Shown piece after piece: positions 2,321 through 58,575 of a stretch of 64,000 nt of DNA. Every line of letters begins with the position of its first letter. Within the stretch, counting starts at the first letter, position 1. The stretch comes from Escherichia coli (GTDB taxonomy: Bacteria > Pseudomonadota > Gammaproteobacteria > Enterobacterales > Enterobacteriaceae). The notes beneath the pieces are model-generated. The model was not told the origin of the DNA. It did no database searches and saw nothing but the letters and a program-made list of their open reading frames with translations. A program made the position numbers and the translations under genes. The stretch lies in NCBI RefSeq assembly GCF_044324785.1, contig NZ_CP172127.1; one strand, written 5' to 3'.

Positions 2321-3505
2321 TTAACTTTCCCGGCTGGAGAGTGAATCAATGTAATCAGCGTACCATTGCATCATTTCACGGCGGCCATCGAGATACAGGG
2401 CATGATTATAGGTACCCCTGATGGAATTTTTATCCACATGAGCTAACTGCATTTCAATCCAGGCAGAATTAAAGCCCTGTTCGTGCAGAATGGTACTCAT
2501 GGTGTGACGAAAACCATGACCGGTTGCCCTGCCATCGTAACCGATACGTTTGAGCACCATATTGATGCTGGCTTCGCTCATTGGCTTGTTGATATCACAA
2601 CGTCCCGGAAAAACCAGCCGGTATTGCCCGGAGAAAGTTTTGAGCTGCAGCAGAATGTCAGTGGCCTGTCGTGACAGTGGTACGACATGTTTACGTCGCA
2701 TTTTCATGCGGCTTTCAGGGATTGTCCACAGTGCATTATCAAAATCAATTTCTGACCATTCAGCGGACCGTAGCTCAATGGTTCTGAGACCTGTCAGAAG
2801 CAGCAGATTTGTCGCCATGCGGGTAACAGGACTGCCATGATACTCAGCGAGCTTCCGGAGAAAAACAGGGAGCTCATCTGCTCTCAGGTGGGGGAAATGT
2901 GCAGCTTTTGGCGCCGCCAGCGTACTGGTCAGTTCAGATGCCGGATTGACAGTGGCTCGTCCGGTGGCGATGGCATAACGAAAAATCTGATTACAGTATT
3001 GACGCACCTTACGAAGTTTTTCCAGCGAGCCACGTTTTTCTATGCGGCGCAGAATTTCCAGCATTTCCAGCGGGAGGATATCCGTAACGCTTCGTTTGCC
3101 CAGATACGGGAAAATATCTTTATCCAGCGCTTCCAGTACGCTTCTGGCGTAACTTTCAGACCATGACAAAGATTTATGCTGGTGCCATTCCGTAGCGAGG
3201 GCATGGAACGTATTGGTGGCAGAGATTTTCTGAGTGAGTTTTTCCTTTCGCTTCTTTTCGCCCGGGTCACCACCTTCGGAGATGATTTTTCGGGCATCGT
3301 CGCGTTTGATTCTGGCCTCAGCAAGGGAGACGTCGGGATAGACGCCGAGGGCCAGTTTTTTCTCTTTTCCTGCTATCCGGTATTTAAGCCGCCAGTAGCG
3401 GGCACCCGTGGTTTTTACCAGCAGATATAAACCACGTTCGTCAGAGAGTTTATAGTCTTTTTCTTTAGGTCTGGCTGTTTCGACCTGTCTGGCTGTAAGT
3501 GCCAT
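2321..3505 (-). CDS. Tyrosine recombinase, P4-type phage/island integrase
   Basis: N-terminus MALTARQVETARPKEKDYKLSDERGLYLLV typical of P4-like integrases; C-terminal catalytic region with HGFRHT...R...Y; start set at ATG 3505 (MALTAR), not the longer track ORF; lies 177 bp from a tRNA-Phe 3' fragment. Confidence 0.85.
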   Translation of the reverse strand: MALTARQVETARPKEKDYKLSDERGLYLLVKTTGARYWRLKYRIAGKEKKLALGVYPDVSLAEARIKRDDARKIISEGGDPGEKKRKEKLTQKISATNTFHALATEWHQHKSLSWSESYARSVLEALDKDIFPYLGKRSVTDILPLEMLEILRRIEKRGSLEKLRKVRQYCNQIFRYAIATGRATVNPASELTSTLAAPKAAHFPHLRADELPVFLRKLAEYHGSPVTRMATNLLLLTGLRTIELRSAEWSEIDFDNALWTIPESRMKMRRKHVVPLSRQATDILLQLKTFSGQYRLVFPGRCDINKPMSEASINMVLKRIGYDGRATGHGFRHTMSTILHEQGFNSAWIEMQLAHVDKNSIRGTYNHALYLDGRREMMQWYADYIDSLSSRES

Positions 3506-14008: not shown

Positions 14009-14836
14009 TCTATGGCGCTACTGGCACCATAGTACAAAAAATGAGCGATGGTGCCACTGACACCACGGTATAAAAAATGAGCGATGGTGACGCTGGCACC
14101 ATAGTACAAAAAATAAGCGATGGTGCCACTGGCACCATAGTACAAAAAATGAGCGATGGTGCCACTGGCACCACGGTATAAAAAATGAGCGATGGTGCCA
14201 CTGGCACCACGGTACAAAAAATAAGCGATGGTGCCACTGGCACCACGGTATAAAAAATGAGCGATGGTGCCACTGGCACCACGGTACAAAAAATAAGCGA
14301 TGGTGCCACTGGCACCACGGTACAAAAAATAAGCGATGGTGCCACTGGCACCACGGTACAAAAAACGAACGATGGTGCCACTGGCACCATAGTACAAAAA
14401 ATAAGCGATGGTGCCACTGGCACCACGGTACAAAAAATAAGCGATGGTGCCACTGGCACCACGGTACAAAAAACGAACGATGGTGCCACTGGCACCATAG
14501 TACAAAAAATAAGCGATGGTGCCACTGGCACCATAGTACAAAAAATAAGCGATGGTGCCACTGGCACCACGGTACAAAAAATAAGCGATGGTGCCACTGG
14601 CACCATAGTACAAAAAATGAGCGATGGTGCCACTGGCACCACGGTATAAAAAATGAGCGATGGTGCCACTGGCACCACGGTACAAAAAATAAGCGATGGT
14701 GCCACTGGCACCATAGTACAAAAAATGAGCGATGGTGCCACTGGCACCACGGTATAAAAAATGAGCGATGGTGACGCTGGCACCATAGTACAAAAAATAA
14801 GCGATGGTGCCACTGGCACCATAGTATAAAAACGAA
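14009..14836. repeat. Tandem array of ~22-23 copies of a 36-bp unit, each containing a 17-19-bp palindrome (A)TGGTGCCACTGGCACCA(T) plus an A-rich spacer
   Basis: Directly visible periodicity of 36 bp across ~830 bp with minor unit variants (cggtac/tagtac, ataa/atga/acgaa, gtgacgctg). Confidence 0.95.
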
Positions 14837-15657: not shown

Positions 15658-17676
15658 ATGCGTCTCTATTTATGTGAAAAACCTTCACAGGCCGCTGATA
15701 TAGCCAGAGTACTTGGGGCTGCCAGACGTGGTGATGGTGCGATTGAAGGTAAGGACTTTGTTGTGACCTGGGCCTTTGGTCACTTGCTGGAGCAGGCGCC
15801 ACCGGAGGCGTATGGTGAACAGTTTGGCAGCCCCTGGAAAATTGACGTTTTGCCGGTCTTTCCTAAACAGTGGAAGATGGTGGTGAAGGATAATGTCGGG
15901 AAGCAGTTTAATGTGATCAGCCGCCTTCTCCGTAAGACTGATGAAGTGGTGATTGCCACTGACGCCGATCGTGAAGGCGAAATTATCGCAAGGGAACTGC
16001 TGGATTATTGTGGTTATACCGGCGTTGTGCGCCGTCTCTGGCTGTCCGCACTGGATGAGAGCAGTATCAGGGAGGCGCTGGGCAGAATACTGCCCGGAGA
16101 GGAGACCGAGAAGTTATATGAAGCCGGTAAGGGACGCAGCCGGGCTGACTGGCTGACGGGGATCAACCTGACGCGTCTGTATACCCTGAAAGCCAGGGGG
16201 TGTGGTGTGTCCGGCGTCCTCTCTGTTGGCAGGGTGCAGACGCCCACGCTTGCGATGGTGGTCAGACGGGACGCGGAAATAAAAAATTTTATTCCGGTAC
16301 CTTACTGGCAACTGTATCTCTGGCTGGAGAAGGATAATGTGCGTTTTCGTACCACCTGGATTGCGGCAGCGCAGTACTGCGATACTGAAAAACGGTGTGT
16401 GAATGTGCAGGCGGCAACAGCCGTCCTGTCACAGTGTCGTCAGGCAGGTGTTGCTGTTGTCAGGGATGTCAGCAGCAGACGGGAGAAAAAGCAGCCTCCG
16501 CTGTGTTTTTCGCTCGGAACGTTGCAGGAGGTCTGTTCGCGCAAATTTGGCCTCGGAGCGCAGGCTGTTCTTGATATAGCCCAGTCGCTGTACGAAAAGC
16601 ATAAGGCGACAACATATCCGCGTACAGATTGCGGTTATCTGCCGGTATCAATGCACAAAGAAGTGCCTGACGTACTGGCGGCGCTGGAAAAAACCGATCC
16701 GGATATTGCCACGGAGCTGGCAAAACTCAGTCCTGATATTGTGTCGGGGATCTGGAACGACAGGAAGATCACCGCGCATCATGCGATAATCCCCACCCGT
16801 CAGCCGTTTAATATTGTGGCGCTGAGTGATAATGAGCTTAAGGTGTACCGGTTAATTCGTCAGCATTATCTGGCTCAGTTTTTACCCATGCAGGAGTCGG
16901 ATGTCACAGAGGCCACATTTCTTGTTGCGGGGCAGTTGTTCGGAACGCGGGGACGGGTGGAGGTTGTCAGGGGATGGCGTGCGCTTTTTGTGTCAGATTC
17001 GGCGGGAGAGGAAGAGGATGTTGCAGACGATGAGCAGGCGATGCCCCTTCCCGTACTGGCAAAAGGTGATGAATGTCGTCCTGCTGAAGCTGAACTCAAA
17101 GAGATGCAGACCACGCCACCACGTCATTATACGGAAGGCACGCTGATTGCGGCGATGAAAAATGCTGCGGGTATGGTGAGTGATCCGGCACTGAAAAAAG
17201 TGTTACGCGAAAATGCGGGGCTGGGTACTGAAGCGACCCGCGCAGAAATACTGGAAACGTTGTTCACCCGCAAATATATCGAGAAGCAGGGTAAGCATAT
17301 CCGTGCCACGCAACTGGGGGCGGAGCTGATAGCGGGATTGCCGGAGGCGCTGACCAGTCCGGGAACAACGGCGCTGTGGGAACAGGCTCTGGATGATATT
17401 GCACAGGGTAAACTGTCACTGTCGTCATTTATGGAGAAGCAGAAACAGTGGCTTAACCACCTGGTGGCCGGTGCAAGGCAGCAGCCACTGCAGATCACGG
17501 CACCGGTTACGCCTGCATGCCCTCTTTGCAGGGGAAGAATGCGGAAAGTGAAGATGAAAAGCGGGAAAGGGGAATTCTGGAGTTGTCAGCGTTATCCGGA
17601 GTGTAAGGGAGTGATTTCAGAGCAGAAACCGACATCCGGGAAACGGGGCGGCAGAAAAATTAAAAAGCGTGGATGA
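15658..17676 (+). CDS. topB: DNA topoisomerase III
   Basis: TOPRIM (IATDADREGE), topo IA core (SVGRVQTPTLAMVV), C-terminal zinc ribbon (CPLCRGRM...CQRYPECKG). Confidence 0.9.
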   Translation: MRLYLCEKPSQAADIARVLGAARRGDGAIEGKDFVVTWAFGHLLEQAPPEAYGEQFGSPWKIDVLPVFPKQWKMVVKDNVGKQFNVISRLLRKTDEVVIATDADREGEIIARELLDYCGYTGVVRRLWLSALDESSIREALGRILPGEETEKLYEAGKGRSRADWLTGINLTRLYTLKARGCGVSGVLSVGRVQTPTLAMVVRRDAEIKNFIPVPYWQLYLWLEKDNVRFRTTWIAAAQYCDTEKRCVNVQAATAVLSQCRQAGVAVVRDVSSRREKKQPPLCFSLGTLQEVCSRKFGLGAQAVLDIAQSLYEKHKATTYPRTDCGYLPVSMHKEVPDVLAALEKTDPDIATELAKLSPDIVSGIWNDRKITAHHAIIPTRQPFNIVALSDNELKVYRLIRQHYLAQFLPMQESDVTEATFLVAGQLFGTRGRVEVVRGWRALFVSDSAGEEEDVADDEQAMPLPVLAKGDECRPAEAELKEMQTTPPRHYTEGTLIAAMKNAAGMVSDPALKKVLRENAGLGTEATRAEILETLFTRKYIEKQGKHIRATQLGAELIAGLPEALTSPGTTALWEQALDDIAQGKLSLSSFMEKQKQWLNHLVAGARQQPLQITAPVTPACPLCRGRMRKVKMKSGKGEFWSCQRYPECKGVISEQKPTSGKRGGRKIKKRG

Positions 17677-17876
17677 TGATTACATGCTTTTTTTATTTGT
17701 TAAAGTGCATACGCTTTGATGCGTACCCTGCTGACCACAGTAAAGAGCGGGCAGCTCTTCGGTCCGGTGATCGGCTCTACACACCAGCTGGATCACAAGG
17801 CGCATAAACTCCGTGAAAACCGCGCCGGGAGAAATCCCCGGAGACTGATGAGATAAACCACAGGGCTGGTAACCCC

Positions 17877-17908
17877 GGGCACCGTTTTTACGGTGCCCTT
17901 TTTATTTT
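17877..17908 (+). terminator. Rho-independent terminator-like hairpin
   Basis: GGGCACCGT-ttttt-ACGGTGCCC followed by TTTTTATTTT. Confidence 0.6.
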
Positions 17909-17940
17909 GGTATTGACTTTCTTTATGTGAGCTTTAAATA

Positions 17941-18270
17941 TGGCAGGGCTAACTTGTCGCTCCGGCGACCACCAATGTTCCATAGTGGCCTGTGAGGAAC
18001 GCCTTCGGGTGGCCCATGTCGCTTCAGCGACCACCAATGTTCCATGTGGCCTGTGAGGAACGCCTTCGGGTGGCCCACGTCGCTCCGGCGACCACCAATG
18101 CTTCATCTGACCTGTGAGGAGCGCCTTCGGGTGGTCAGTTTTACACCTCCTGAGCCTGAAAGGAGCTGTGCGTACTGAAGGGATATATTCCCGGAAGTAC
18201 GGGCAAATCTGCACACCTTTGAGAGCAGATGTCACTGCGGTTTTCCGTGATGATGAAGGCTTTTTTTACT
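17941..18270 (+). repeat. Structured ~320-bp element, copy 1 of 3 (three ~61-bp tandem units plus hairpin-rich tail)
   Basis: Unit gtcgctccggcgaccaccaatgttccatgtggcctgtgaggaacgccttcgggtggcccac x3, then tail with CTCCT/AGGAG, GTACT/AGTAC, ATCTGC/GCAGAT stems; near-identical at 46163 and 48465. Confidence 0.85.
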
Positions 18271-18385
18271 GCACAGACAGCCGGAAATTCAGCTGATTCC
18301 GGCATCCCCGACGGGAACTATCACTCCCGTCAGGGCTGGTGATGTTCTCCGTCATATCTTTTTTTCACTCCATGGAGAAATCATC

Positions 18386-18850
18386 ATGTCTGCAACTAAC
18401 TCTACTTCTGCAAAAACTGAATACTTCAACCTGACCATGAAAGGTCTTGGGTATCTCAGCAATGTACGTCAGGTTAACCATCAGAACGGTTCGTTCCTCA
18501 GCTGTGTGATTAACGCACTGAGTGGACCAACGGACAATCCGTCCTATACGCGTTTTGATGTTACGGTTGCCGGTAAAGAGGCGACCACCCTGATCTCCCG
18601 CTGCCAGAAAGCAGTGGATGAGGACCGCAAGGTACTGCTTGGTTTTACGTTAAGCAACCTTGCCACCGACATTTTCACCCTGAACAAGGGGGAGCATGCC
18701 GGTGAGCAACGCGTCAGCCTGAAAGCCCGCCTGATCAAGGTGGACTGGATAAAAATAGGCCAGGAGCAGGTCTATAAGGCTGAAAAAGCGGAGTCCCAGC
18801 CACCGAGCCATGGCACCACAAAACGTGAATACGCAGAAGACTCCTTCTGA
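18386..18850 (+). CDS. Conserved ICE protein preceding ssb (STY4534-type family by recall)
   Basis: SD GGAGAAA before ATG 18386; conserved neighbour of ssb in this ICE family. Confidence 0.65.
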   Translation: MSATNSTSAKTEYFNLTMKGLGYLSNVRQVNHQNGSFLSCVINALSGPTDNPSYTRFDVTVAGKEATTLISRCQKAVDEDRKVLLGFTLSNLATDIFTLNKGEHAGEQRVSLKARLIKVDWIKIGQEQVYKAEKAESQPPSHGTTKREYAEDSF

Positions 18851-18949
18851 TCGCGTATTTTTCTCACTGCCTCCCTGATAAAGAAAACAGACCACCATCA
18901 GGGAGGTCTGTTTTCTTATTGTGTTTACTGAACTTTAAGGAAACAAATT

Positions 18950-19153
18950 ATGACTTCTACAAACGGTATTCTCGCAGCTGCGGCAGGTTATACATTACCT
19001 CTGGAAATACTCAAAAGTGGGCGCGGATATTATATTGGCACTCAGTGTTGTGAGGGGCCGGTATCCCGTGAATCAGAAGAGTATTTCAAAAAATATGAGC
19101 AGGCTGAGCGGGCGCTGAAAAATGGCACCTGGACACAACGTCATGCCTGGTAA
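18950..19153 (+). CDS. Small hypothetical protein
   Basis: 67 aa; SD AAGGAAA before ATG. Confidence 0.45.
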   Translation: MTSTNGILAAAAGYTLPLEILKSGRGYYIGTQCCEGPVSRESEEYFKKYEQAERALKNGTWTQRHAW

Positions 19154-19165
19154 TGAGGAGGTGCT

Positions 19166-19723
19166 ATGGCTTCACGTGGCGTAAACAAAGTTATCCTGAT
19201 AGGACATCTGGGGCAGGATCCGGATATCCGGTATTTCCCCAATGGCGGTGGCGTTGTGGCGAATCTGTCACTGGCGACCAGCGACACCTGGCGGGATAAA
19301 CAGAGCGGTGAAATGAAGGAAGTCACTGAATGGCACCGCGTTGTTCTCTATGGAAAACTGGCTGAAGTTGCCTGCGAGTACCTGCATAAGGGGTCGCAGG
19401 TGTATATAGAAGGCCAGCTTAAAACCCGTAAATGGTTTGACCAGCAGAATGGTGTGGACCGTTATTCAACTGAGGTTGTTGTGGGCGTGAATGGTGTCAT
19501 GCAGATGCTGGGTTCATCGCGTCAGCAGGGCGCTTCCGGTAATGGTGCTTCAGCACCGGCACAAGGGGGCCAGGGACAGCCGCCGAAGACGACCGGACAG
19601 ACTGGTCGTGCTACCCGGACAACTTCAACAGGTAATGGTGCTCCACCTGTGGACTTTGACGATGATATCCCCTTTATGGGGATCGGGTATGGCATGGAAC
19701 GGCGAATTATTCATGCCATGTAA
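19166..19723 (+). CDS. ssb: Single-stranded DNA-binding protein with C-terminal extension
   Basis: OB-fold N-terminus ([28 protein letters not shown]...), Gly/Gln-rich linker, acidic tip DFDDDIPF followed by 15 extra residues before stop. Confidence 0.9.
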
Positions 19724-29157: not shown

Positions 29158-29400
29158 GCTGATGTTTCCTCTTTACGGGGGGTCATTAGCGGGAAACTGT
29201 AGTGATGACCTGTTTCAGTAAACAGAAAAAATCATTAAAGATGGAATAAAATTGCGCCCCGGCGCGGGGATATGTTCCGGCATTCAGCCATGTCCGTTTT
29301 CCCTTAAAAATTTTCAGTTTTACAAATAGAGTTTATCGCTGACCGGCACACCTGCCTTCTTCATGCTGTACGCACCCACAGATTCTTAACGGAGGTGCGT

Positions 29401-37445: not shown

Positions 37446-37818
37446 AAAAACTGCCGCTACTGGCAACTGTGTCGTGGTGGCATGTTACTGGCAGGTGGTT
37501 TACGGAGTATGGGCCCAATTCTGGCCTGCCGGAACATGCCCTTATAACCTTTAACACAGCGGTTACATAAAAAACAATGTCTTTTATGCACAGCAGTATT
37601 ATGGCTGAAAGTGAAATAAAAGCGCGATATTATACTGCTTCGCGTCCGGTTGTCATTATCATGGATAGTGCGTTATGTTTATAAAGGCGTGACGGACGCT
37701 TAATTCTCACGCAACGCACCCCTCTTAAATTTTCAGTTTCCGGTTTTGAATTTATTGCTGCTATTGGTGCTGCTTATGCGCACGCTGTAAGTCGGATATT
37801 GTCTGACGGAGGCGTACA

Positions 37819-45996: not shown

Positions 45997-46162
45997 ATTA
46001 TCACCTTTTGTCTGACAGTTCATTTGTTGATGCTATCACGATATTCGCGATGCGGTAAATATATCAATATGTTGGTTTATTTGTGTAATACATTATTTCC
46101 CATATGCCATAAATCAGTCTGTTGACGATAGCTTTTTTCTTTTGTTATTCTGTTCCCGCATT

Positions 46163-46478
46163 AACTGTCGCTTCGGCGACCACCAATGTTCCATGAGGCC
46201 TGTGAGGAACGCCTTCGGGTGGCCCATGTCGCTCCGGCGACCACCAATGTTCCATGTGGCCTGTGAGGAACGCCTTCGGGTGGCCCACGTCGCTCCGGCG
46301 ACCACCAATGCTCCATCTGACCAGTGAGGAGCGCCTTCGGGTGGTCAGTTTTACACCTCCGTAGCCTGAAAGGAGCTGTGCGTGCTGATGGGATATGTTT
46401 CCGGAAGTACGGGTAAATCTGCACACCTTTGCGAGCAGATGTCACCACGGTTTACGTGATGATGAAGGCATTCCGGAT
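46163..46478 (+). repeat. Structured ~320-bp element, copy 2 of 3
   Basis: Same three-unit plus hairpin-tail organisation as 17941-18270, with a few substitutions. Confidence 0.85.
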
Positions 46479-47175
46479 TTCGTCCGGTACTTTTACTTTT
46501 TCTCAGCAGACTTTCATAAAAAATGCTTTATGGATCTGCGTCTTAACATATTTTCTGACTTTCCGCATAAGCTTCTTATGACTGTGCGCACGGCATAAGG
46601 CCATTTGAAATTTGGCCGCTTGCGTGTGTACGTGGAGTTTGAAGCAGTGCATGCGTCACTTTTGTCGGCGTTCACGCTGACAAAGTGACGCATGAACGTC
46701 GACTCAACGAACCCGCATAAACAGGCTCTTCACGGGATGTTTTTTAACATTTGAAGAAGTGACCTGACGTGATCGTTTTTTTTCAACTTCATTCTGTTTC
46801 GTAGTGACGTCTCTCCGGTAAAACTTCCGGAAAAACGTCAGTCAACAGAATATCATTGTTTTTTAAGGAGTTTAATGTAGTGAGATGCCGAATCGGCGAT
46901 ATATCTGACAGGCAGATATGTCGGGGGCGACCTTCAGAGGTACAGTTAATTCTGCGGCCGGTTAAACTAACCGGCTTGACACCCCGCAAAACCTGAACAC
47001 TTTGCGTTACCCTGACGCACAGGCACTCACTCACCGAAGGAACGTAACGAAGAACCGTGTCGTCAGGTGAAATGCAGATGAATTCTTCTGTTGTGTTCAC
47101 GGCACAACAGAAGAATTCATCTGTGTTGTGTGCTGCTGTTTTGTTTAGGTCATAGGTCATAAGGAGAATGTACAG

Positions 47176-48081
47176 ATGTCCAGACGTGAGAAATTGCTTA
47201 AAAAGGATCTGGTTGCTCATGTCCGAAAAGAAAAGGGGAGTTTTAAAAAGTTAAGTGACTATACAAGGATTATGCATCGATTCGCTGAAACGCTTGCTCG
47301 TCTGAATGTACAGATTAGTTCTGCTGCACAGTTAAAAGTTCGTCACATTGAATTATATATGAACAGCAGGACGGATGTATCAAAACGAACGAGAGAAAAT
47401 GAAATGTCAGCAATACGCGCGGTTTTACGTCAGGTTGGTAAGAATAAACTTGCCGATCCCAGCCATCCACGGCTGAGTAATAAAGCATTAGGTATTTCAG
47501 GTGAGAGTCGTAAAGGTACGAAAAGTCTGATTACAGACGATCGTTTTCGTGAAATTCTTCAGCGCATTGAACAAAAAGATAAAGGACTCGCTGCAACGGT
47601 TAAATTGTCGCGTTATCTTGGTCTGAGAAATGAGGAGGCCATTCAGTCCGCCAAATCGCTCAAAACATGGAAACAGGCATTAGAACGGGGAGATGAAAAA
47701 TTACGTGTTATTTTTGGTACGAAAGGCGGTCGTGAGAGAATGACCACGATTGTTGACAGAAATAATGTTATTGAGGCTGTTAATTATGCTATTAAATATG
47801 CCGGTGAGCATGACGGGCGATTAATCGACAGAGGTAATCTTAAGTCTGCAATGAATTATTATCTTAACTCATTGCGTCGTTATGGTGAAATGAAAGGCGG
47901 TGATGAGACACCACATAGTTTTCGTTACAGTTATGCCGCAAGTGCAATGAAATACCATATTATGAATGGTTACAGTTATCATGAAGCGCTTGCATTAACA
48001 TCTATGGATCTTGGTCACGGTGACGGCAGAGGACGTTATATCGAGCAGGTATATTGCCAGTTGTTAGGACATGAAGAATAG
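47176..48081 (+). CDS. Tyrosine-recombinase/integrase-like protein
   Basis: SD TAAGGAGAA before ATG; candidate catalytic residues R (LGLRNEEA), HxxR (HSFRYSYA), Y (GRGRYIEQVY); family by pattern only. Confidence 0.55.
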   Translation: MSRREKLLKKDLVAHVRKEKGSFKKLSDYTRIMHRFAETLARLNVQISSAAQLKVRHIELYMNSRTDVSKRTRENEMSAIRAVLRQVGKNKLADPSHPRLSNKALGISGESRKGTKSLITDDRFREILQRIEQKDKGLAATVKLSRYLGLRNEEAIQSAKSLKTWKQALERGDEKLRVIFGTKGGRERMTTIVDRNNVIEAVNYAIKYAGEHDGRLIDRGNLKSAMNYYLNSLRRYGEMKGGDETPHSFRYSYAASAMKYHIMNGYSYHEALALTSMDLGHGDGRGRYIEQVYCQLLGHEE

Positions 48082-48415: not shown

Positions 48416-48464
48416 ATTTTTTTGTTGTTCTTCCACGTAGTTTGTGCTTACAATTTAAACGCTA

Positions 48465-48775
48465 ACTTGTCGCTTCGGCGACCACCAATGTTCCATGTGG
48501 CCTGTGAGGAACGCCTTCGGGTGGCCCATGTCGCTCCGGCGACCACCAATGTTCCATGTGGCCTGTGAGGAACGCCTTCGGGTGGCCCACGTCGCTCCGG
48601 CGACCACCAATGCTTCATCTGACCTGTGAGGAGCGCCTTCGGGTGGTCAGTTTTACACCTCCTGAGCCTGAAAGGAGCTGTGCGTACTGAAGGGATATGT
48701 TTCCGGAAGTACGGGCAAATCTGCACACCTTTGAGAGCAGATGTCACTGCGGTTTTCCGTGATGATGAAGGCTTT
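48465..48775 (+). repeat. Structured ~320-bp element, copy 3 of 3
   Basis: Near-identical to copy 1. Confidence 0.85.
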
Positions 48776-48901
48776 TTTATCACTGTATGACCTGAGTTAT
48801 CTCTGGTCCTTAAGCACATCGTGTTATCGCATTGATGTGTTCACCTGACGGATTTTCCAGTCCGTCAGGGCGGAACGTCCGTCTTTTATCCGGAGGTTCC
48901 A

Positions 48902-49303
48902 ATGTTTATTCCACTTCTGTTTCGCGCAGAGATGCGCCTGACACCTTTCTTTCAGCGACTCAGACAACGTCTGTGTTATCCGGTGAGTCGTGTTCATACA
49001 CAACATCCCTGGTCTTCTCCACAGTTGCGGCACCTTTACTGCACGCCGTGGTTTGTTAACGCCACCGGCAATCTTGCACTCCGTGCCTGCATTGTTTCCA
49101 TTGACGGTTCTTTGCGACACTGCTTTGAGTTCCGTGAAGGCTCTCACAGCCGTGAATACCGTTTCTGGTTTGAGGCGCTTCCTTTGTCGGTACTGCGTTT
49201 TAACACTTTTACCGGTCGAATATCCGATCGCCGTACACTCTCTGCTGCCTCCCGTATGGCCGCGCAGCTTACTTCCTTTCGCTATCGCTTCGGTTTGCGC
49301 TGA
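48902..49303 (+). CDS. Hypothetical basic protein
   Basis: SD GGAGG 5 nt before ATG 48902; preceded by 9-bp-stem hairpin. Confidence 0.45.
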   Translation: MFIPLLFRAEMRLTPFFQRLRQRLCYPVSRVHTQHPWSSPQLRHLYCTPWFVNATGNLALRACIVSIDGSLRHCFEFREGSHSREYRFWFEALPLSVLRFNTFTGRISDRRTLSAASRMAAQLTSFRYRFGLR

Positions 49304-49455
49304 AGCTGTTTGAGGTCGTTATGACAGTCATTTTCTCTACGAGCAGCGTTGTCTGATCGCGCCATTCAGAACGCGATGACAAAGCTGATTTTTCCTTAAC
49401 CCGTCCGGGACCGCTTCCGTTCGGGGAACGGTCTCTCTGTTTCTGGAGATTGTTT

Positions 49456-49842
49456 ATGGGACTCGATATTTTTTTCCTTGGGCGTGATCGTGTTTGTGTT
49501 ACCGACGCAGTGGTATCGGTACCGGAAACGCGGGAAGTGGGGTACTTTCGCAAGGTTAACCCACTGATTGCCTGGTTTGAGAAGCATTGTGGACCGCTTG
49601 AAAATGCCGTGGAGCGTCCGGTTTCCAGAACGGAACTGGAGGCACTACTGAGCGATCTTGAATGCCTTACGCCGGAGAACTGCCGGGAATTCTTCCCCAC
49701 AACAGAAGGATTCTTTTTTGGCTCTCAGGAGTATGACCAGTATTACTGGAAGGATGTTGAGGACGTGAAGTCGTGGGTCAGAAGCACGCTTGATTCGTTT
49801 GATTTTGAACGAAAAATACTGTTGCTCTGGGCATGGTGGTAA
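49456..49842 (+). CDS. Hypothetical protein
   Basis: SD GGAGA before ATG 49456 (track ORF begins at upstream TTG). Confidence 0.5.
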   Translation: MGLDIFFLGRDRVCVTDAVVSVPETREVGYFRKVNPLIAWFEKHCGPLENAVERPVSRTELEALLSDLECLTPENCREFFPTTEGFFFGSQEYDQYYWKDVEDVKSWVRSTLDSFDFERKILLLWAWW

Positions 49843-49928
49843 CTATTTCTCAGTCCTTGTTTTTAACCATGTGATTATTCGCAGAAGCCCGACTTCTCTG
49901 GCCTGCTTTTATTCCGGAGAATGAGATT

Positions 49929-50177
49929 ATGCAAATAAGTGCAGAAACTCGCGCTGTTTTACGTCACTACAGACAGATCATTAACGCCAGACGGCGTGAA
50001 GATGGCATGAAAGCTCTCAGCACGCCGCAAATCGTTGATGAGATCTGTGAGTTTATGCTCAGCCAGCCAGCAGTGTATCTGGGGGGGGCAGTTCATCATG
50101 CAGAAGGCCAGAACAAGATAGCTGTCTTTGTTCATGGCTTTTCAACAGACCGTTATGCTTTCGCCACCACATGGTAA
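49929..50177 (+). CDS. Hypothetical small protein
   Basis: 82-aa ORF in same-strand block. Confidence 0.45.
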   Translation: MQISAETRAVLRHYRQIINARRREDGMKALSTPQIVDEICEFMLSQPAVYLGGAVHHAEGQNKIAVFVHGFSTDRYAFATTW

Positions 50178-50261
50178 GGCGGGTCTGATTTTACTGTTAA
50201 CCGTACGGTTCACTCTCATACCGTACGGTGGGAGTGAACCCTTTTCATTAAGGACACTCTC

Positions 50262-50771
50262 ATGAAAACGAAAACTTCTGCACCTGCTGTATATGTTGGT
50301 ACCTGGGCTAAATACAACAATGGCAGCATAGAAGGATGCTGGTTTAATGATTTAACCGTTTTTGAAACTGAAAGCGATTTTTTATCTGCGGCCCGTAAGT
50401 TTCATCAGGATGAAAAAGATCCTGAATTTATGTACCAGGATTATGAAAACTTTCCTTCGGGAATGGCTTCAGAATATGGTTTCAACTGGGCTTATGTTGA
50501 AGGTTATCGTCTTGCCCGTGAAGAAGGCTGTGAAGATGCATGGTATGCATGGGTTTCTAATACCGGTGATACCTGTTTCGAACAGTTCAGGGAGGCGTGG
50601 CTTGGTGGTCCTTATGACAGTGAACTCGAGTTCGCCGCGCAGTACGTGGATGAATGCGGTTTTCTGTCAGAGGTACCTGATACTGTTGCACGCTATTTTG
50701 ATTATGAGGCTTTTGCGCGCGATTTGTTCATGGAACTGGATTTTGTCGACGGACACGTTTTCCATCGGTAA
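50262..50771 (+). CDS. ardA: Antirestriction protein ArdA
   Basis: PAVYVGTWAKYNNGSIEGCWF...HQDEKDPEFMYQDYENFP and acidic composition match ArdA by recall. Confidence 0.8.
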   Translation: MKTKTSAPAVYVGTWAKYNNGSIEGCWFNDLTVFETESDFLSAARKFHQDEKDPEFMYQDYENFPSGMASEYGFNWAYVEGYRLAREEGCEDAWYAWVSNTGDTCFEQFREAWLGGPYDSELEFAAQYVDECGFLSEVPDTVARYFDYEAFARDLFMELDFVDGHVFHR

Positions 50772-50967
50772 CTCACAGCCATGAGGGCGCATATAAGCCG
50801 TGTACTGGCGGATGTGATTTCAGCATACATTCTGCTGGTTTTTTTACCGTTGTTGACAATTTTAATCATCGCGGATGAACAACCTGAACTCTGTTGTTCA
50901 CCGCCCGGAGGCATCGTTCCTTCGGACGGTGTGCTCTTTCATCAGAAAGAATCAGACAGGGGGTTTT

Positions 50968-51327
50968 ATGTATTCGCGTTTTATTACTGGTTACTGGCAT
51001 CTTCAGACGCAGTCCGCTTTGCTGGCACATCTCTGTCAGCTTGAAGGTGAACTGACGATACTTCGCGCCTGGCAACGTCTCGGAATTACCCCGGTGCCGG
51101 AGGATGAAGATGAGCCTTCACCACTTTACTCAATTTTGTGGGATGTTGGTGAGGCTCTGGGCTGGTTGCTGTATGACCTGGAGATGGAAAATGTTCCTGC
51201 ACCGGGAACGATTTTCCACGAGGTATTCGACAGGGTTATATCTCTGGGGTATGAGACTGAGCCCGGTATCTGGGCTGAAAGTATCAGTACCGGAAAGCGC
51301 TACGCTGCAATGCCTGACGAATTTTAA
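50968..51327 (+). CDS. Hypothetical protein
   Basis: SD GGGGG before ATG 50968. Confidence 0.45.
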   Translation: MYSRFITGYWHLQTQSALLAHLCQLEGELTILRAWQRLGITPVPEDEDEPSPLYSILWDVGEALGWLLYDLEMENVPAPGTIFHEVFDRVISLGYETEPGIWAESISTGKRYAAMPDEF

Positions 51328-51394
51328 TGTTTTCCACATTCCCACAGGGACTCATCCCTGTGGGACGGGTCCCGGCTTTTTCAGGAGAAATTTC

Positions 51395-51733
51395 ATGAGA
51401 CCCGATTTGAATACTTTACCCGGAGATTCCGGCTGCAGCGTCTGGTTCTATGACGGAATGTCTCAACCGCGTCTGCTGGCGGGCAGTATTGCCGGGTTAC
51501 TGACGGATGTTACGATCACATCGAATTACCGTGGTGACGTCACATCTGAAATTCATGACGTGGTGCAGGAGTGGCTTGCGACCGGCAGGGGTAACCTGGC
51601 GGATTTAAAGGAAGAACTCTGGTACTACAACCTCTACATAAATCCGTCGGCAGACGAACTTATGAATGCCAACAGGCGGTATGGCCTCGGACATACCACC
51701 AGGCTGAAAGGCTTTATCAATAACGCGGCGTGA
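51395..51733 (+). CDS. Hypothetical protein
   Basis: SD AGGAGAAA before ATG 51395; preceded by hairpin. Confidence 0.5.
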   Translation: MRPDLNTLPGDSGCSVWFYDGMSQPRLLAGSIAGLLTDVTITSNYRGDVTSEIHDVVQEWLATGRGNLADLKEELWYYNLYINPSADELMNANRRYGLGHTTRLKGFINNAA

Positions 51734-51808
51734 CACACCGCCATCCCGTGAGGGCTCAGCTCCTCACGGGGCTGTTCCCTCGGTGATTTTCATACAGAGA
51801 GGAGCAGA

Positions 51809-52246
51809 ATGATGAACGTTAAGTCTGTGACTGAGGTTGACGACGCTGTGGTTGCCCGTGTCAGTGAAGTTCTGGAATTCGCATTTCCGGGGCAGAAATT
51901 TGAAGTGCTGAAGGTATGCGATTCCGGCGTTTACAACATGATTAATGTGTACTGGCTGGACGGCCCGACACAGGCTGAAGTGCGGTTTATCACCCGTGCG
52001 TTTGAAGGCAAAAACGGGCTGAGGTTTGTGCACGAATCCCGCGAATTCAGTAATGAATTTGTGCAGGAGTGCATTGACCGGCTTCGCCAGAAGTACGGGC
52101 ATCGCAACGTTCCGCCAGAGGTGACCGTGGAGCGTTACTGGAAAAACGATCTGTGGAAGATTAAAACAGATCGTTTCCCGGGCACTATTGAGGTTGCCAT
52201 CAACGAAATGGGGATGGAAACCAGTAAATACCGGAAGGTTGTATAA
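51809..52246 (+). CDS. Hypothetical protein
   Basis: 145-aa ORF, SD GAGAGGAG upstream. Confidence 0.5.
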   Translation: MMNVKSVTEVDDAVVARVSEVLEFAFPGQKFEVLKVCDSGVYNMINVYWLDGPTQAEVRFITRAFEGKNGLRFVHESREFSNEFVQECIDRLRQKYGHRNVPPEVTVERYWKNDLWKIKTDRFPGTIEVAINEMGMETSKYRKVV

Positions 52247-52353
52247 CCGGCTGGACTTTTGACGATGGCGGAATGTGACAATTCCGCTTTTCCCGTGAGG
52301 GCATTGTTCCTCACGGGACAATGCCCTCTTCATTTACCAGAGGAGCATTGATT

Positions 52354-53331
52354 ATGGCTGAATGGTGCAGAAATCGTTTTGAAATCACCGGTAAGTCAGT
52401 CTGTCTTGACGTACTGATTCAGTGGATTGAAGGGAATGATGCCCCCCGGTACCGTCATGCGATCCAGCAGAGCATACTGCTGTTTCTTGCAGGCTGTGCG
52501 GGGATACTGAAACCGGTAAGAACGGTGTCATATCCGCCTTATCCCGGGCTGGTCAGTCACGGTGCCGGCTCAACAACTGTAGCCAGTCAGGCGTTTGAAC
52601 AATGGCTGGGATTACTGACCAGGGATGCCTTCCTTGATCACGAGACGGTGAAGACAATAGATCGTCTTTATCATCAGACAGGGACAGGCGCTATCCGGTG
52701 GAGTAATCTGCCTGATACGGCGAAGGAGATAATCGGTGGTGTGCTTGCACAACAATATGCTGACTGGTTTGGCGTGGCGGATGTGTATGAACGCCCTGAT
52801 AACGCCTTTCTCTGGGAGTCGTTGTTAACATTTGCGGAGTATTCGCAACCCTGTGATATGCTGCAGGTGATGCCAACACGACTGGCCACGGAGCTGAACG
52901 GAAGTGGTGGTTTGCTGAAAGGCACCGGAACGACCCGCAGTTTTTACTGCCGCCAGTTTGGTATGGAGTACCCACTGGGGCAGAATGTCCGGTGGAAACG
53001 AACCGGGCTGAGTACGTTGATACTGGAGTTTGATACCATCTGGTGTCCGCCTTCAGGTGTACTGGTGGGGGAGATTTCGGCAGTGTTTGACTGTGAGGTC
53101 CGTCACTGGTACAGCGAGCCGAAGAACGGAATCAGAGGCTATGACTGTTATGATGGTGGTGAACATACGGACAGCAATATGGAAGCCGAATGGCCACACT
53201 CTGACGATGAGGGGGAGGTCGCGGAGCATGAGCAGCCACAACTCTGTCTGATCAGGGACACGCAGCCAGGTGAACGCGTCATGGCATTAGCATCAGTCGA
53301 GTCCCCGGGGCCAGTAGTAAAAATAGTGTAA
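52354..53331 (+). CDS. Hypothetical protein
   Basis: SD GGAG before ATG 52354 (MAEWCRNRFEITG...). Confidence 0.55.
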   Translation: MAEWCRNRFEITGKSVCLDVLIQWIEGNDAPRYRHAIQQSILLFLAGCAGILKPVRTVSYPPYPGLVSHGAGSTTVASQAFEQWLGLLTRDAFLDHETVKTIDRLYHQTGTGAIRWSNLPDTAKEIIGGVLAQQYADWFGVADVYERPDNAFLWESLLTFAEYSQPCDMLQVMPTRLATELNGSGGLLKGTGTTRSFYCRQFGMEYPLGQNVRWKRTGLSTLILEFDTIWCPPSGVLVGEISAVFDCEVRHWYSEPKNGIRGYDCYDGGEHTDSNMEAEWPHSDDEGEVAEHEQPQLCLIRDTQPGERVMALASVESPGPVVKIV

Positions 53332-56330: not shown

Positions 56331-58367
56331 TTAGTTCCTTACCACCAAATCTAAATCAATAGATTTTTTATTAGCATAACTTTTTAGTGCTTCATTGAGT
56401 TCCATCTGTTTCGCACTTTCGAAGTTGCTGCCATAAAATACAACTTTGTTAGGGGCAAAGTCTTTGTCTGCATCCAGCTTTTGAAGTAAAGCTTTCAAAG
56501 CCTCACTTGTGAAATTAGGCGCAATTAGATATAGCCGACCATCGCACAAGTGTGCTTTGTAGCCATTAAGGTCAATATCTTCAATTGGTGTTGTTAGCAA
56601 GCTGCCATCATACACGCACCATGTCGTCAATAGAGTGTCATACTGCTCTGGTGTCAATACAGCATCGTCAAAGAAACTAAGATTAGAAAGCGTAAGTTCA
56701 GACTCATCTTTCACTCGAAAATCATGAACTGTTTCAAATATTTTAAATCCCAAATCTCCATTATAATTAGGATTATCTTTTTTCAGCTTTTTTCCTGCCT
56801 TAATAATTCTGTCTTTTGTTATATTGAAGATGGATTTATACCCTTCTTTATAGGCTTGTTTCTTTTTATCTGTTTCTTCATCTAATTGAACACAGATGAA
56901 GTTTCTTTTCCTGCCGTCTTCAATATTTAACTCCAGAATACCATGAGCTGTAGTTCCAGAGCCAGCAAAAAAGTCAAGATAAATGTCTTTATCTTCGGTT
57001 TTTACTGAACCAAATAGTGTTTTTATTAAACTTGTTGGCTTCGGGTAGGAGAAATATCCTTTCCCACCAAAAAGATTTTCAACCTCAACACCACCATCAC
57101 TTTTAGTTGAAATAATTGATCTTAGTAAAAACTCTTCAACTTCATCTAAAAATTTAACCGAACTGGGTTGGGTGTTTTCTGTACTGGCAAACCAAATTCC
57201 ACCACAAATAACGCTACCATCATGTAGTTTTTTGATATCTGCATACTTTCCATCTATTCTTTTTGCAATATGATTAAAAGTGCCTTCTTTCCAACGCCAG
57301 CCTCTGTCTGGGATTTTGACAGGGTTATTAGTCAAAGGGTGCAATACTTCATACGTGGGTCCAAATGAATCTGCATTAGGCCAGCTCATATTAATTTTAC
57401 CCCATGGCCTATAATCTTCGTTCAAACAGTTGTAAAGAGTAATTCCACGATCATATCCGTTGGAGCTGTAGAATTTTTTGAGTTGCTGCTCTGCTTTATC
57501 TAATGGCACCTTCTCCTTTTTTAACTTTTCAATAAACTGATATACATCATCAATACCATCTTTCCGCATTAAAAATTCTTTACTTATTTCGTTATTCTTC
57601 GCATAAGCAAGGATGTACTCATGGATATTACCAATACCCTTATCATTTTTAGGGATACGTTTATTCCATACAATATTTTCTATGAAATTTGCTTCGCCAA
57701 AAATTTCATCACAAATAGTTTTAAGTTGATTTAATTCATTTTCGTCAATCGAAATAAATATCACACCATCTTCACGTAGAAGCTCACGAGCAATATATAA
57801 ACGAGGATAAATGAACGTTAACCATGCGCTATGGCTGCTTGAACCATTCGTGGTAAATTCAAGTATACGTTTAGCCTCATCAAGATCGATACCTGCCAGA
57901 TCAGAAAGCTGTTCAGGTGTAAACTTGCGATCATCGTTATAGGCGAATCCATCCTTACCTGTATTGTATGGTGGATCAATGTAAATCATCTTCACCTTTT
58001 CAGAGTAAGCATTAACCATATGCTTCAATACTTCGAGGTTATCCCCTTTGATTAACAGATTCTGACTGTTTTTGTTCTCTTCACGTTGGTTATGGTCTTT
58101 ATCTTCGGAGAGTAATGTCTTCGGCGGCAAGTTAGCTAACAGACGGGCATAGGATTTACCAAGCCAGTTCAGGCTGTATGATTCTTTGGAGAGTTCAACA
58201 TCCGATGATTTGACGATTTCAAGCAATTTTTCCTGAATGAACGCTCCATTTTTATCAAAACACTGTGGAAAGTTAGCCTTTAAAATCGCAAGCTGTTTAC
58301 TGTTTGTGGTTTCAGTTTCAGAGAAAAGAGTTTCTTTTTTCAGTTGAAATTGGGGTTGTGTATTCAT
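56331..58367 (-). CDS. mod: Type III N6-adenine DNA methyltransferase Mod subunit
   Basis: Motif IV DPPY (MIYIDPPYNTG) preceding motif I FFAGSGTT (beta-class order); SD GGAGGTG 5 nt before ATG 58367; mod-res order. Confidence 0.85.
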   Translation of the reverse strand: MNTQPQFQLKKETLFSETETTNSKQLAILKANFPQCFDKNGAFIQEKLLEIVKSSDVELSKESYSLNWLGKSYARLLANLPPKTLLSEDKDHNQREENKNSQNLLIKGDNLEVLKHMVNAYSEKVKMIYIDPPYNTGKDGFAYNDDRKFTPEQLSDLAGIDLDEAKRILEFTTNGSSSHSAWLTFIYPRLYIARELLREDGVIFISIDENELNQLKTICDEIFGEANFIENIVWNKRIPKNDKGIGNIHEYILAYAKNNEISKEFLMRKDGIDDVYQFIEKLKKEKVPLDKAEQQLKKFYSSNGYDRGITLYNCLNEDYRPWGKINMSWPNADSFGPTYEVLHPLTNNPVKIPDRGWRWKEGTFNHIAKRIDGKYADIKKLHDGSVICGGIWFASTENTQPSSVKFLDEVEEFLLRSIISTKSDGGVEVENLFGGKGYFSYPKPTSLIKTLFGSVKTEDKDIYLDFFAGSGTTAHGILELNIEDGRKRNFICVQLDEETDKKKQAYKEGYKSIFNITKDRIIKAGKKLKKDNPNYNGDLGFKIFETVHDFRVKDESELTLSNLSFFDDAVLTPEQYDTLLTTWCVYDGSLLTTPIEDIDLNGYKAHLCDGRLYLIAPNFTSEALKALLQKLDADKDFAPNKVVFYGSNFESAKQMELNEALKSYANKKSIDLDLVVRN

Positions 58368-58425
58368 AACGCACCTCCAGAATGCACGGAGGTACTTGAC
58401 GCGGAATTTTTATACAGGCATATTG

Positions 58426-58575
58426 TTGCGTTGCGTTGCGTTGCGTTGCGTTGCGTTGCGTTGCGTTGCGTTGCGTTGCGTTGCGTTGCGTTGCGTTGCG
58501 TTGCGTTGCGTTGCGTTGCGTTGCGTTGCGTTGCGTTGCGTTGCGTTGCGTTGCGTTGCGTTGCGTTGCGTTGCG
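58426..58575. repeat. Perfect pentanucleotide repeat (TTGCG)x30; (CGCAA)x30 on the mod-sense strand
   Basis: 150 bp of uninterrupted 5-nt periodicity, 58 bp upstream of mod ATG, preceded on the sense strand by ATG-AAA with SD GAGG. Confidence 0.95.

Follow-up and report, generated by a model that had tools for sequence, protein, structure and literature searches.

Three STAXI pseudoknot arrays in an Escherichia coli integrative and conjugative element and their probable role as 5' leaders of establishment operons

The STAXI motif (RF01728) was defined as a pseudoknot repeated two or three times, found next to genes for Ssb, topoisomerase, antirestriction proteins and XerC/D-type integrases; its discoverers left open whether single-stranded DNA (ssDNA) or RNA is the functional form, and favoured RNA owing to the UUCG loops (Weinberg et al., 2010; PMC2864571). 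Together with the radC motif, STAXI accounts for 80% of the RNA genes in MPF_G integrative and conjugative elements (ICEs) (PMC5587801). In Pectobacterium atrosepticum, STAXI transcripts were detected 3' of topB by strand-specific RNA-seq (PMC4710047), and in E. coli the RNA was detected by reverse-transcription quantitative PCR (RT-qPCR) in DNase-treated vesicle RNA (PMC12370729). Here, we analysed a 64,000-nucleotide stretch of E. coli DNA (contig NZ_CP172127.1, assembly GCF_044324785.1; hereafter the window), which belongs to an SPI-7-type ICE and carries three copies of a repeated, structured element. This element is the already catalogued STAXI RNA motif, and an ordinary instance of that family. 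A first-pass annotation of the window, made from the sequence alone, had proposed that the element is an Frpo- or ssi-type ssDNA promoter or, alternatively, belongs to a structured RNA family; it was the alternative that turned out to be right, since the family is Rfam's STAXI and the RNA has been seen both by RNA-seq (PMC4710047) and by RT-qPCR (PMC12370729).

The three copies, of about 320 nt each, all lie on the + strand (Table 1; copy 1 spans approximately 17952-18267) and each is formed by three 61-nt tandem units followed by a tail of about 130 nt. A repeat search of the window returned one family of three copies, 282 nt long, at 17985-18266, 46195-46476 (88% identity) and 48497-48778 (99%), and Tandem Repeats Finder (TRF) reported a period of 61 nt and 2.9 copies at 17955-18134, 46166-46344 and 48468-48646; the thrice-repeated element of about 320 bp with tandem units of about 61 bp described in the first-pass annotation is thus plainly there. 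In a three-way alignment, identity extends from a few bases 5' of the first hairpin to the tail, and the flanks are unrelated. An Rfam scan of the whole window gave six matches, all to RF01728, all on the + strand and two adjacent ones per copy, with scores of 61.6-68.6 bits (gathering score, 40.5) and E-values of 1e-10 to 3e-12 each. These E-values, together with the homologous arrays present in many genera (see below), indicate that the copies are not chance matches. The Rfam model consists of three modules, one canonical unit and two tail modules, and each window copy is matched twice because its canonical unit is triplicated, giving five modules against the three of the model. Thus, the scores exceed the gathering threshold, the pseudoknot unit is repeated at least twice, and the genes around the copies are those expected for STAXI in Enterobacterales.

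To place the window copies in a comparative frame, 100,044 species genomes were scanned with a sequence pattern. The scan returned 60 loci, of which 55 are real, in Pantoea, Erwinia, Serratia, Citrobacter, Edwardsiella, Cedecea, Mixta, Xenorhabdus, Morganella, Brenneria and other Enterobacterales; the other five (L028, L029, L043, L044 and L046, from Aestuariivita, Rhodobiaceae and Clostridiales) fit the pattern by chance and were left out. A single-unit covariance model (R1) built from 41 units then found 116 units in 69 arrays, including the three of the window, and scored the units of copy 1 at 72.5, 66.9 and 63.4 bits. The comparisons below rest on 66 distinct arrays from Enterobacterales and on 40 distinct units from about 20 genera. 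Arrays contain one to three units, at spacings that are not fixed. No blastn match to STAXI was found among 50,697 phage records.

The canonical unit is an H-type pseudoknot with four helices: the P1 hairpin, the P2 outer stem, the inner C(UUCG)G hairpin P2b, and a pseudoknot helix in which the linker GUUCC pairs with the bulge GGAAC. Across the distinct units, 97.2% of the paired cells hold standard pairs and both partners have changed in 10 of the 18 pairs; the pseudoknot helix itself is paired in 99.5% of cases, with five pair types at one position. When the 3' partners were slid along the alignment, at most 56% of cells remained paired, and no shuffle attained the observed covariation. The unpaired nucleotides CCAAUG and CUG-GAG are strictly conserved, an invariance that was in part imposed by the search pattern, which fixed CCAATG, CTG, GAG, CCTT and GGG and left the covarying positions free. 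Two other explanations of conserved features of the unit were rejected: CsrA-type GGA sites in the bulge, since the GGA covaries to GAA with its pseudoknot partner (GAGAAAC and similar), and small open reading frames (ORFs) starting at the invariant AUG, since 61 nt is not a multiple of three and the variation tracks pairing rather than codons.

The tail is formed by two more pseudoknot-like modules, so that each window copy has five. The arms of module 4 (of the CTCCT/AGGAG type) are fully complementary in 43 of 49 GCCTG-anchored arrays, in 11 combinations (5% in flank shuffles), and those of module 5 (ATCTGC/GCAGAT type) are paired at six of six positions in 46 of 52 arrays, in 12 combinations. 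In copy 1, module 4 has the inner hairpin GTACT...AGTAC, and the outer stem of module 5 is formed by CCTT (18216-18219) and AAGG (18256-18259), followed by a T-run (18261-18267). All the stems listed in the first-pass annotation (GTCGC/GCGAC, the C-TTCG-G loop, CTCCT/AGGAG, GTACT/AGTAC and ATCTGC/GCAGAT) are visible in the sequence; its view of the tail needs amending, in that CTCCT/AGGAG and ATCTGC/GCAGAT are present, not as simple hairpins but as the pseudoknot helices of two extra, degenerate units. We also observed that in many arrays the first nucleotides of the predicted transcript, CAGGCU, are complementary to the invariant AGCCUG of module 4 (17944-17950 with 18153-18158 in the window). 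The run is at least 5 bp long in 29 of 43 arrays, against about 30% of shuffled leaders; the pairing shows no covariation, its partner being invariant, and would enclose the entire element in a single domain.

The conserved fold is specific to the sense strand. Among the paired cells of the distinct units there are 72 G.U but only 6 A.C juxtapositions, and when one G.U that is kept in 39 of the 40 units is set aside the numbers are 33 and 6; because each G.U would be a C.A mismatch on the opposite strand, and A.C is rare, the fold belongs to the sense (non-template) strand. The UUCG inner loop is closed by C-G in 38 of the 40 units. Computational folding of both strands, which the first-pass annotation had proposed as a check, was carried out for RNA and DNA and gave minimum free energy (MFE) z-scores of -2.4 for the sense RNA, -1.3 for the antisense RNA, -2.2 for the + strand as DNA and -1.6 for the other DNA strand, values that do not discriminate the strand. 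MFE could not decide the question because the repeats cross-pair and pseudoknots are not modelled, and covariation was used instead.

The main new comparative result is a promoter at a fixed distance ahead of the arrays. In 56 of the 66 arrays, the best sigma-70-like site within the 100 nt upstream has a -10 hexamer that ends exactly 10 or 11 nt upstream of unit 1, with TTGACA, TTGACG, TTGACC or TTGACT as the -35 and a spacer of 16-18 nt, nearly always 17-18. When the arrays are aligned on the -35 there are about 2 bits of information on TTGAC and close to none in the spacer and farther upstream, and since TTGAC is conserved amid unconserved flanks, selection appears to act on the promoter itself and not through shared descent of the whole region. 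In the window, the promoter of copy 2 matches 9 of 12 positions in a consensus scan and has a TG ahead of the -10 (Table 1). A sigma-70 promoter at this distance places the predicted start about 8 nt before the first hairpin, which would make STAXI the extreme 5' end of a primary transcript. On this sequence evidence, STAXI is a putative RNA leader made from an ordinary sigma-70 promoter, with predicted start sites. The position of the promoter and the sense-only fold settle, by comparative evidence, most of the question of RNA versus ssDNA.

The genes around the arrays point in the same direction. Every multi-member gene family flanking the arrays that appears genuine is encoded on the STAXI strand. 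Downstream, the closest family is the Integrase_1 recombinase in 17 arrays, DUF3577 in 16 and a 133-aa family in 9; on the upstream side, TopB is closest in 15. The neighbour most often met on the same strand is a recombinase (35 arrays). No terminator-like site lies within 320 nt after the last canonical unit in 44 of 63 arrays. In the window, the interval 17600-18500 showed no further promoter-like site on the + strand, leaving the promoter of copy 1 as the sole candidate for DUF3577-ssb. With a fixed promoter, co-oriented genes and, in most arrays, no terminator, STAXI would form the 5' end of the mRNAs of DUF3577-ssb, the recombinase and the ardA block. The first-pass annotation had already placed the elements at the head of operons of establishment genes (ssb, anti-restriction, recombinase), and the gene context agrees: a conserved protein of 154 aa, a small ORF of 67 aa and ssb are annotated 3' of copy 1 on the same strand, and ardA lies in the same-strand block behind copy 3. 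Thus, STAXI is usually a 5' leader, and some instances may also give a discrete RNA.

We therefore consider it probable, if by no means certain, that the copies, as STAXI arrays with five H-type pseudoknot modules, are cis-acting 5' leaders that bind a shared factor on three operons of the ICE. STAXI would then tag the mRNAs of the maintenance and establishment operons (DUF3577-ssb, recombinase and ardA block) in cis with a shared 5' leader, and a single factor would bind the array, a proposal made because the unpaired CCAAUG and CUG-GAG are strictly conserved and the design of the repeats is multivalent; the bound factor would set the fate of the mRNA, be it stability, elongation past downstream hairpins and terminators, or translation. 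Several observations weigh against this account. The promoters of copies 1 and 3 were read from the sequence, both having been missed by the consensus scan, and their hexamers are weak; the folding z-scores given above are modest for the sense RNA as compared with the antisense; a strong terminator follows the tail directly in about six arrays, so that some STAXI transcripts may be discrete RNAs; copies 1 and 3 end in a T-run, which again could yield a discrete RNA; STAXI together with the EFASI motif occurs on small plasmids without a downstream protein gene, which makes a role beyond the cis-control of a coding gene possible; and our literature search found no functional study of STAXI.

The plasmid occurrences, and those in which STAXI behaves as a cassette, are the main support for two of the rival explanations, a trans-acting RNA and an ssDNA signal. 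Other E. coli ICEs, in which STAXI appeared to be missing ahead of the DUF3577 gene, have a divergent variant of it, of the CCAGCCAAUG class, in the same place (at 2690-3000 of locus L063, corresponding to 17913-18267 of the window), preceded by a promoter with TTGACT, a 17-nt spacer and AAAAAT. Because the variant differs while the leader downstream of it is 98.5% identical, the STAXI element is exchanged as a sharply bounded cassette. A 3.1-kb rolling-circle plasmid with an HUH Rep (L064; NZ_CP059920.1) bears STAXI (139 bits) and EFASI (77 bits), and a 5.3-kb plasmid with a different annotated replication initiator (L066; NZ_CP135677.1) bears both motifs as well, in neither case with a recombinase gene. 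These two unrelated E. coli backbones have in common a module of about 930 bp, at 94.7% identity, and were found in strains that also carry the ICE (64.1 and TUM9803). On Klebsiella IncF plasmids, STAXI is found together with an Integrase_1 gene among insertion sequence elements. These occurrences suggest that the STAXI module has value on its own.

It is accordingly conceivable, if unlikely, that STAXI works in trans as an independent RNA, for example as a protein sponge or in the manner of an antitoxin, and that it ends or is processed after the tail, its position before genes being incidental or coupling expression levels. Sponge RNAs and type III antitoxins typically consist of identical modules in tandem. 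Rfam classes STAXI as an sRNA, a species of about 228 nt was reported by RNA-seq (PMC4710047), and STAXI is abundant in E. coli vesicle RNA (PMC12370729). The ends of the window copies are compatible with this possibility, with GGCTTTTTT(T) at the end of copies 1 and 3 and, after copy 2, a hairpin and T-rich tail (46473-46487), as are the terminators just past the tail in the six or so other arrays and the 930-bp module shared by two plasmids with no downstream protein gene. However, neither the T-run that follows the tail nor a terminator is conserved across genera, most arrays having no terminator within the 320 nt inspected; the genes that closely follow the arrays strictly share their orientation; copy 1 provides the only promoter candidate for DUF3577-ssb; and the GGA of the bulge covaries away, as described above, and is hence not a CsrA-type site.

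Less probable still is that folded ssDNA of the sense strand is the active form, as a priming or single-strand-origin signal from which the complementary strand is made after conjugative transfer or rolling-circle replication. The discoverers raised ssDNA because the neighbouring genes handle DNA (PMC2864571); all the arrays in the ICE have a single orientation; STAXI and EFASI are the main non-coding segment of the 3.1-kb rolling-circle plasmid, whose HUH Rep has the motif HPHFH; and the + strand, taken as DNA, folds slightly better than shuffles (z = -2.2). Against these points, a conserved and precisely placed promoter of the duplex type would have no role in such a signal, and RNA is detected. 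Moreover, C(UUCG)G and GNRA loops and a conserved G.U in a 3-bp stem stabilise RNA but are weak in DNA. The rolling-circle plasmid encodes rep on the strand opposite to the STAXI sense strand, which is thus probably not the displaced one, and the module also occurs on the plasmid with a "replication initiation protein" and no HUH Rep, which is presumably of the theta type and would need no single-strand origin.

The reading put forward first for this element, that of an Frpo- or ssi-type single-strand promoter driving early transcription of ssb and ardA from the incoming strand, now appears very improbable. It draws on an analogy of context, as the three copies stand before ssb, anti-restriction and establishment genes in the same way as repeated Frpo and ssi elements in plasmid leading regions (PMC11541004). 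Frpo is a hairpin of the transferred (template) strand in which the -35, -10 and UP elements pair with their complements, so that RNA polymerase can start on ssDNA (PMC11541004). At the window copies, no hairpin holds -35 and -10 hexamers paired with complements: none of the three promoters is covered by an inverted repeat, and neither strand of the element contains promoter-like hexamers. STAXI consists of short local pseudoknots and not of a hairpin that mimics duplex DNA, and its fold is on the non-template strand; the antisense strand would have C.A mismatches at 72 cells. The single-strand promoter fails either way, because the + strand folds but cannot template the + strand genes, and the - strand would not form the fold, an argument that does not extend to a priming signal on the folded + strand. 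The absence of a promoter hairpin, the sense-strand fold (72 G.U, 6 A.C) and the ordinary sigma-70 promoter upstream (56 of 66 arrays) together speak against this claim of the first-pass annotation. Equally implausible is the view that the 61-bp repeats are protein sites in duplex DNA, either iterons of an ICE replicon or arm sites of a recombinase, as suggested by tandem direct repeats that adjoin genes for an "ICE replication protein" and a tyrosine recombinase and by the travelling of the module with a recombinase gene on Klebsiella plasmids, since the variation keeps base pairing and not sequence (compensatory changes in 10 of 18 pairs), the asymmetry between G.U and A.C would be meaningless in duplex DNA, and neither the number of units, one to three, nor their spacing is fixed.

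If the STAXI copies are cis-acting leaders, their genomic setting shows which genes they would control. Over a 551-nt query that includes copy 1, the chromosome of E. coli APEC E19035 matches the window at 100% identity, and the gene calls used here are those of the annotation of an identical E. coli record, converted to window coordinates (Table 1). The order of the ICE before copy 1 is parA, dnaB-PI, parB, STY4528, PFL_4669 and topB, and the topB unit is closed by an intrinsic terminator immediately ahead of copy 1, noted by the first-pass annotation and seen as a 9-bp hairpin (17877-17898) with a T-run. After copy 1 come STY4534 (DUF3577), the 67-aa ORF, ssb, Rpn, the pil and tra genes and traD, on to traG; copy 2 is followed by an EFASI-like segment, the Integrase_1 gene and a small gene; and after copy 3 there is a 133-aa ORF, for which no NCBIfam match was found, and then on to ardA, LPD29 and DUF1281, followed by a type III restriction-modification system on the opposite strand. 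The ICE continues for about 18 kb beyond the window, up to the genes of a UvrD-type helicase, a TraI-domain protein and an integrase, the last adjoining tRNA-Phe; the gene of the TraI-domain relaxase, close to this tRNA gene, is some 60 kb away. The literature on ICEclc yielded no oriT position or polarity applicable to this ICE.

Table 1. Coordinates in the window of the STAXI copies, their promoters and the associated features
Feature	Position	Strand	Details
STAXI copy 1, canonical units	17952-18015, 18016-18076, 18077-18137	+	RF01728, 61.6 and 66.3 bits
Tail module 4, copy 1 (degenerate pseudoknot)	18138-18204	+	CTCCT 18147-18151 pairs with AGGAG 18161-18165
Tail module 5, copy 1 (pseudoknot)	18205-18267	+	ATCTGC 18207-18212 pairs with GCAGAT 18225-18230
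STAXI copy 2	46163-46469	+	Three units and two tail modules; 88% identical to copy 1
STAXI copy 3	48465-48778	+	Three units, two tail modules and T-run; 99% identical to copy 1
Predicted promoter, copy 1	17913-17941	+	-35 TTGACT 17913-17918, 17-nt spacer, -10 AAATAT 17936-17941
Predicted promoter, copy 2	46122-46151	+	TTGACG, 18-nt spacer, TATTCT; -10 ends 11 nt before unit 1
Predicted promoter, copy 3	48425-48454	+	TTGTTC, 18-nt spacer, TACAAT; -10 ends 10 nt before unit 1; -35 weak
topB (topoisomerase III)	15658-17676	+	Annotation
Intrinsic terminator closing the topB unit	17877-17908	+	9-bp stem 17877-17898, 7 G-C pairs, then T-run TTTTTATTTT
Gene-specific part of the leader	18268-18385	+	Hairpins 18280-18303 and 18306-18335; inverted repeat 18303-18338
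Operon headed by copy 1	18386-19723	+	DUF3577 18386-18850, 67-aa ORF 18950-19153, ssb 19166-19723
EFASI-like RNA motif	46878-47031	+	RF02957, 46.3 bits (gathering score 51.2), E = 4e-7; below threshold
Tyrosine-recombinase-like gene	47176-48081	+	Integrase_1 and Phage_int_SAM_2, Pfam E = 5e-56 and 2.5e-23
Gene block behind copy 3	48902-53331	+	Includes ardA 50262-50771; annotation

Between copy 1 and its operon, the gene-specific part of the leader contains GATGTTCTCC (18341-18350), which can pair with the Shine-Dalgarno region GGAGAAATCATC (18374-18385). The leader hairpins and the GUUUUCUCC/GGAGAAAAC pairing recur before DUF3577 in Pantoea, Serratia, Citrobacter and Edwardsiella (loci L006, L011, L023, L026, L033 and others), and the pairing is predicted to be one that would sequester the Shine-Dalgarno sequence of the DUF3577 gene. 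A similar TCCGTCAGGGC hairpin is found at 48846-48871, before the ORF that follows copy 3. The first protein of the copy 1 operon is an STY4534-family, DUF3577 "ICE replication protein" (NCBIfam NF040584, 198 bits; Pfam DUF3577). A structure model of it, made with 23 homologues, has a mean pLDDT of 76, with core blocks mostly at 86-93, and matches the OB folds of bacterial and mitochondrial SSB and of PriB with a Foldseek probability of 1.0 (E = 3e-4), at a target-normalised TM-score of about 0.5 and 8-17% identity; its disordered C-terminal tail ends in ...YAEDSF. The operon headed by copy 1 may thus, to judge from this model, encode two SSB-type proteins. By analogy with gene 32 of phage T4 (see below), a more specific and decidedly speculative version of the shared-factor proposal is that the array is bound by an SSB-type OB-fold protein, either the DUF3577 protein or Ssb of the ICE or the SSB of the host, and that ssDNA titrates the binder and so de-represses the genes controlled by the leaders. 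The ssDNA would arise in transfer, entry or replication of the excised element, and ssb, ardA and the recombinase gene would be de-repressed together; such a scheme, if true, would be an RNA-level counterpart of the early expression that plasmids obtain from Frpo.

Copy 2 is followed by the EFASI-like segment. Rfam, as quoted in PMC12370729, places EFASI 3' of STAXI and ahead of integrase genes, a description that the position of the segment, between copy 2 and the recombinase gene, fits. Between this segment and the start of the Integrase_1 gene (47176) there is a perfect 21-bp inverted repeat with a 7-nt spacer (47075-47123); it has no T-tail and is thus not an obvious terminator, and could be a protein-binding or recombination site. 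Elsewhere in the window, 30.6 perfect copies of GTTGC (GCAAC on the coding strand) occupy 58425-58577, 58-210 nt upstream of the annotated start of a type III restriction-modification methyltransferase gene (56331-58367, - strand). An ATG of the - strand at 58581 opens a frame through the repeat, out of frame with the annotated start, and the repeat looks like a phase-variable (phasevarion-type) switch. A 36-nt tandem repeat at 14012-14832 (22.8 copies, 91% match) nearly fills an annotated hypothetical gene of 266 aa on the - strand, between STY4528 and PFL_4669. Finally, a 41-nt sequence (CCCTTAAAAATTTTCAGTTTTACAAATAGAGTTTATCGCTG) occurs at 29301-29341 and 37720-37760, at 71% identity, in both cases intergenic and ahead of transfer-gene blocks, and may be a shared regulatory site.

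STAXI heads ssb, anti-restriction and recombinase operons in widespread enterobacterial ICEs with virulence and resistance cargo, and has been an orphan motif since 2010; the question is now narrowed to the role of a multi-pseudoknot 5' leader for the mRNAs of establishment genes. The window copies belong with STAXI (RF01728), with which they share the tandem pseudoknots, the occurrence in Enterobacterales and the same gene neighbours, and differ from the three-module Rfam model in the triplicated canonical unit and hence the five modules. The radC motif (RF01754), associated with anti-restriction functions in MPF_G ICEs (PMC5587801), is like STAXI an RNA gene of these elements, but is a separate Rfam family, listed for Proteobacteria (PMC2864571), and was not detected in the Rfam scan of the window. 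Frpo and ssi (Masai and Arai, 1997; PMC11541004) resemble STAXI as repeated, structured non-coding elements placed before the ssb and anti-restriction genes of a conjugative element. Whereas Frpo is a template-strand hairpin that rebuilds a duplex -35 and -10, STAXI is formed by sense-strand pseudoknots 3' of an ordinary promoter. In type III antitoxin RNAs (ToxI-like), a constitutive promoter is followed by tandem repeats, each folding into a pseudoknot, and then by a protein gene. STAXI shares this arrangement of promoter, tandem pseudoknot repeats and downstream protein gene, but the units within an array are non-identical and the last two are specialised. A type III toxin-antitoxin system was considered and rejected, as no ToxN/CptN/TenpN-type endoribonuclease gene was found after the copies: the proteins encoded after copies 1 and 2 are DUF3577 and Integrase_1 by Pfam, and the 133-aa ORF after copy 3 has no match in NCBIfam. 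In the gene 32 mRNA of phage T4, a pseudoknot in the leader nucleates the autoregulatory binding of the ssDNA-binding protein that the mRNA encodes. Copy 1 is likewise a 5' leader with pseudoknots ahead of a gene for an ssDNA-binding protein, and since its operon may encode two SSB-type proteins, autoregulation of the gene 32 kind is conceivable; unlike the T4 leader, STAXI is multimeric and also stands before unrelated genes.

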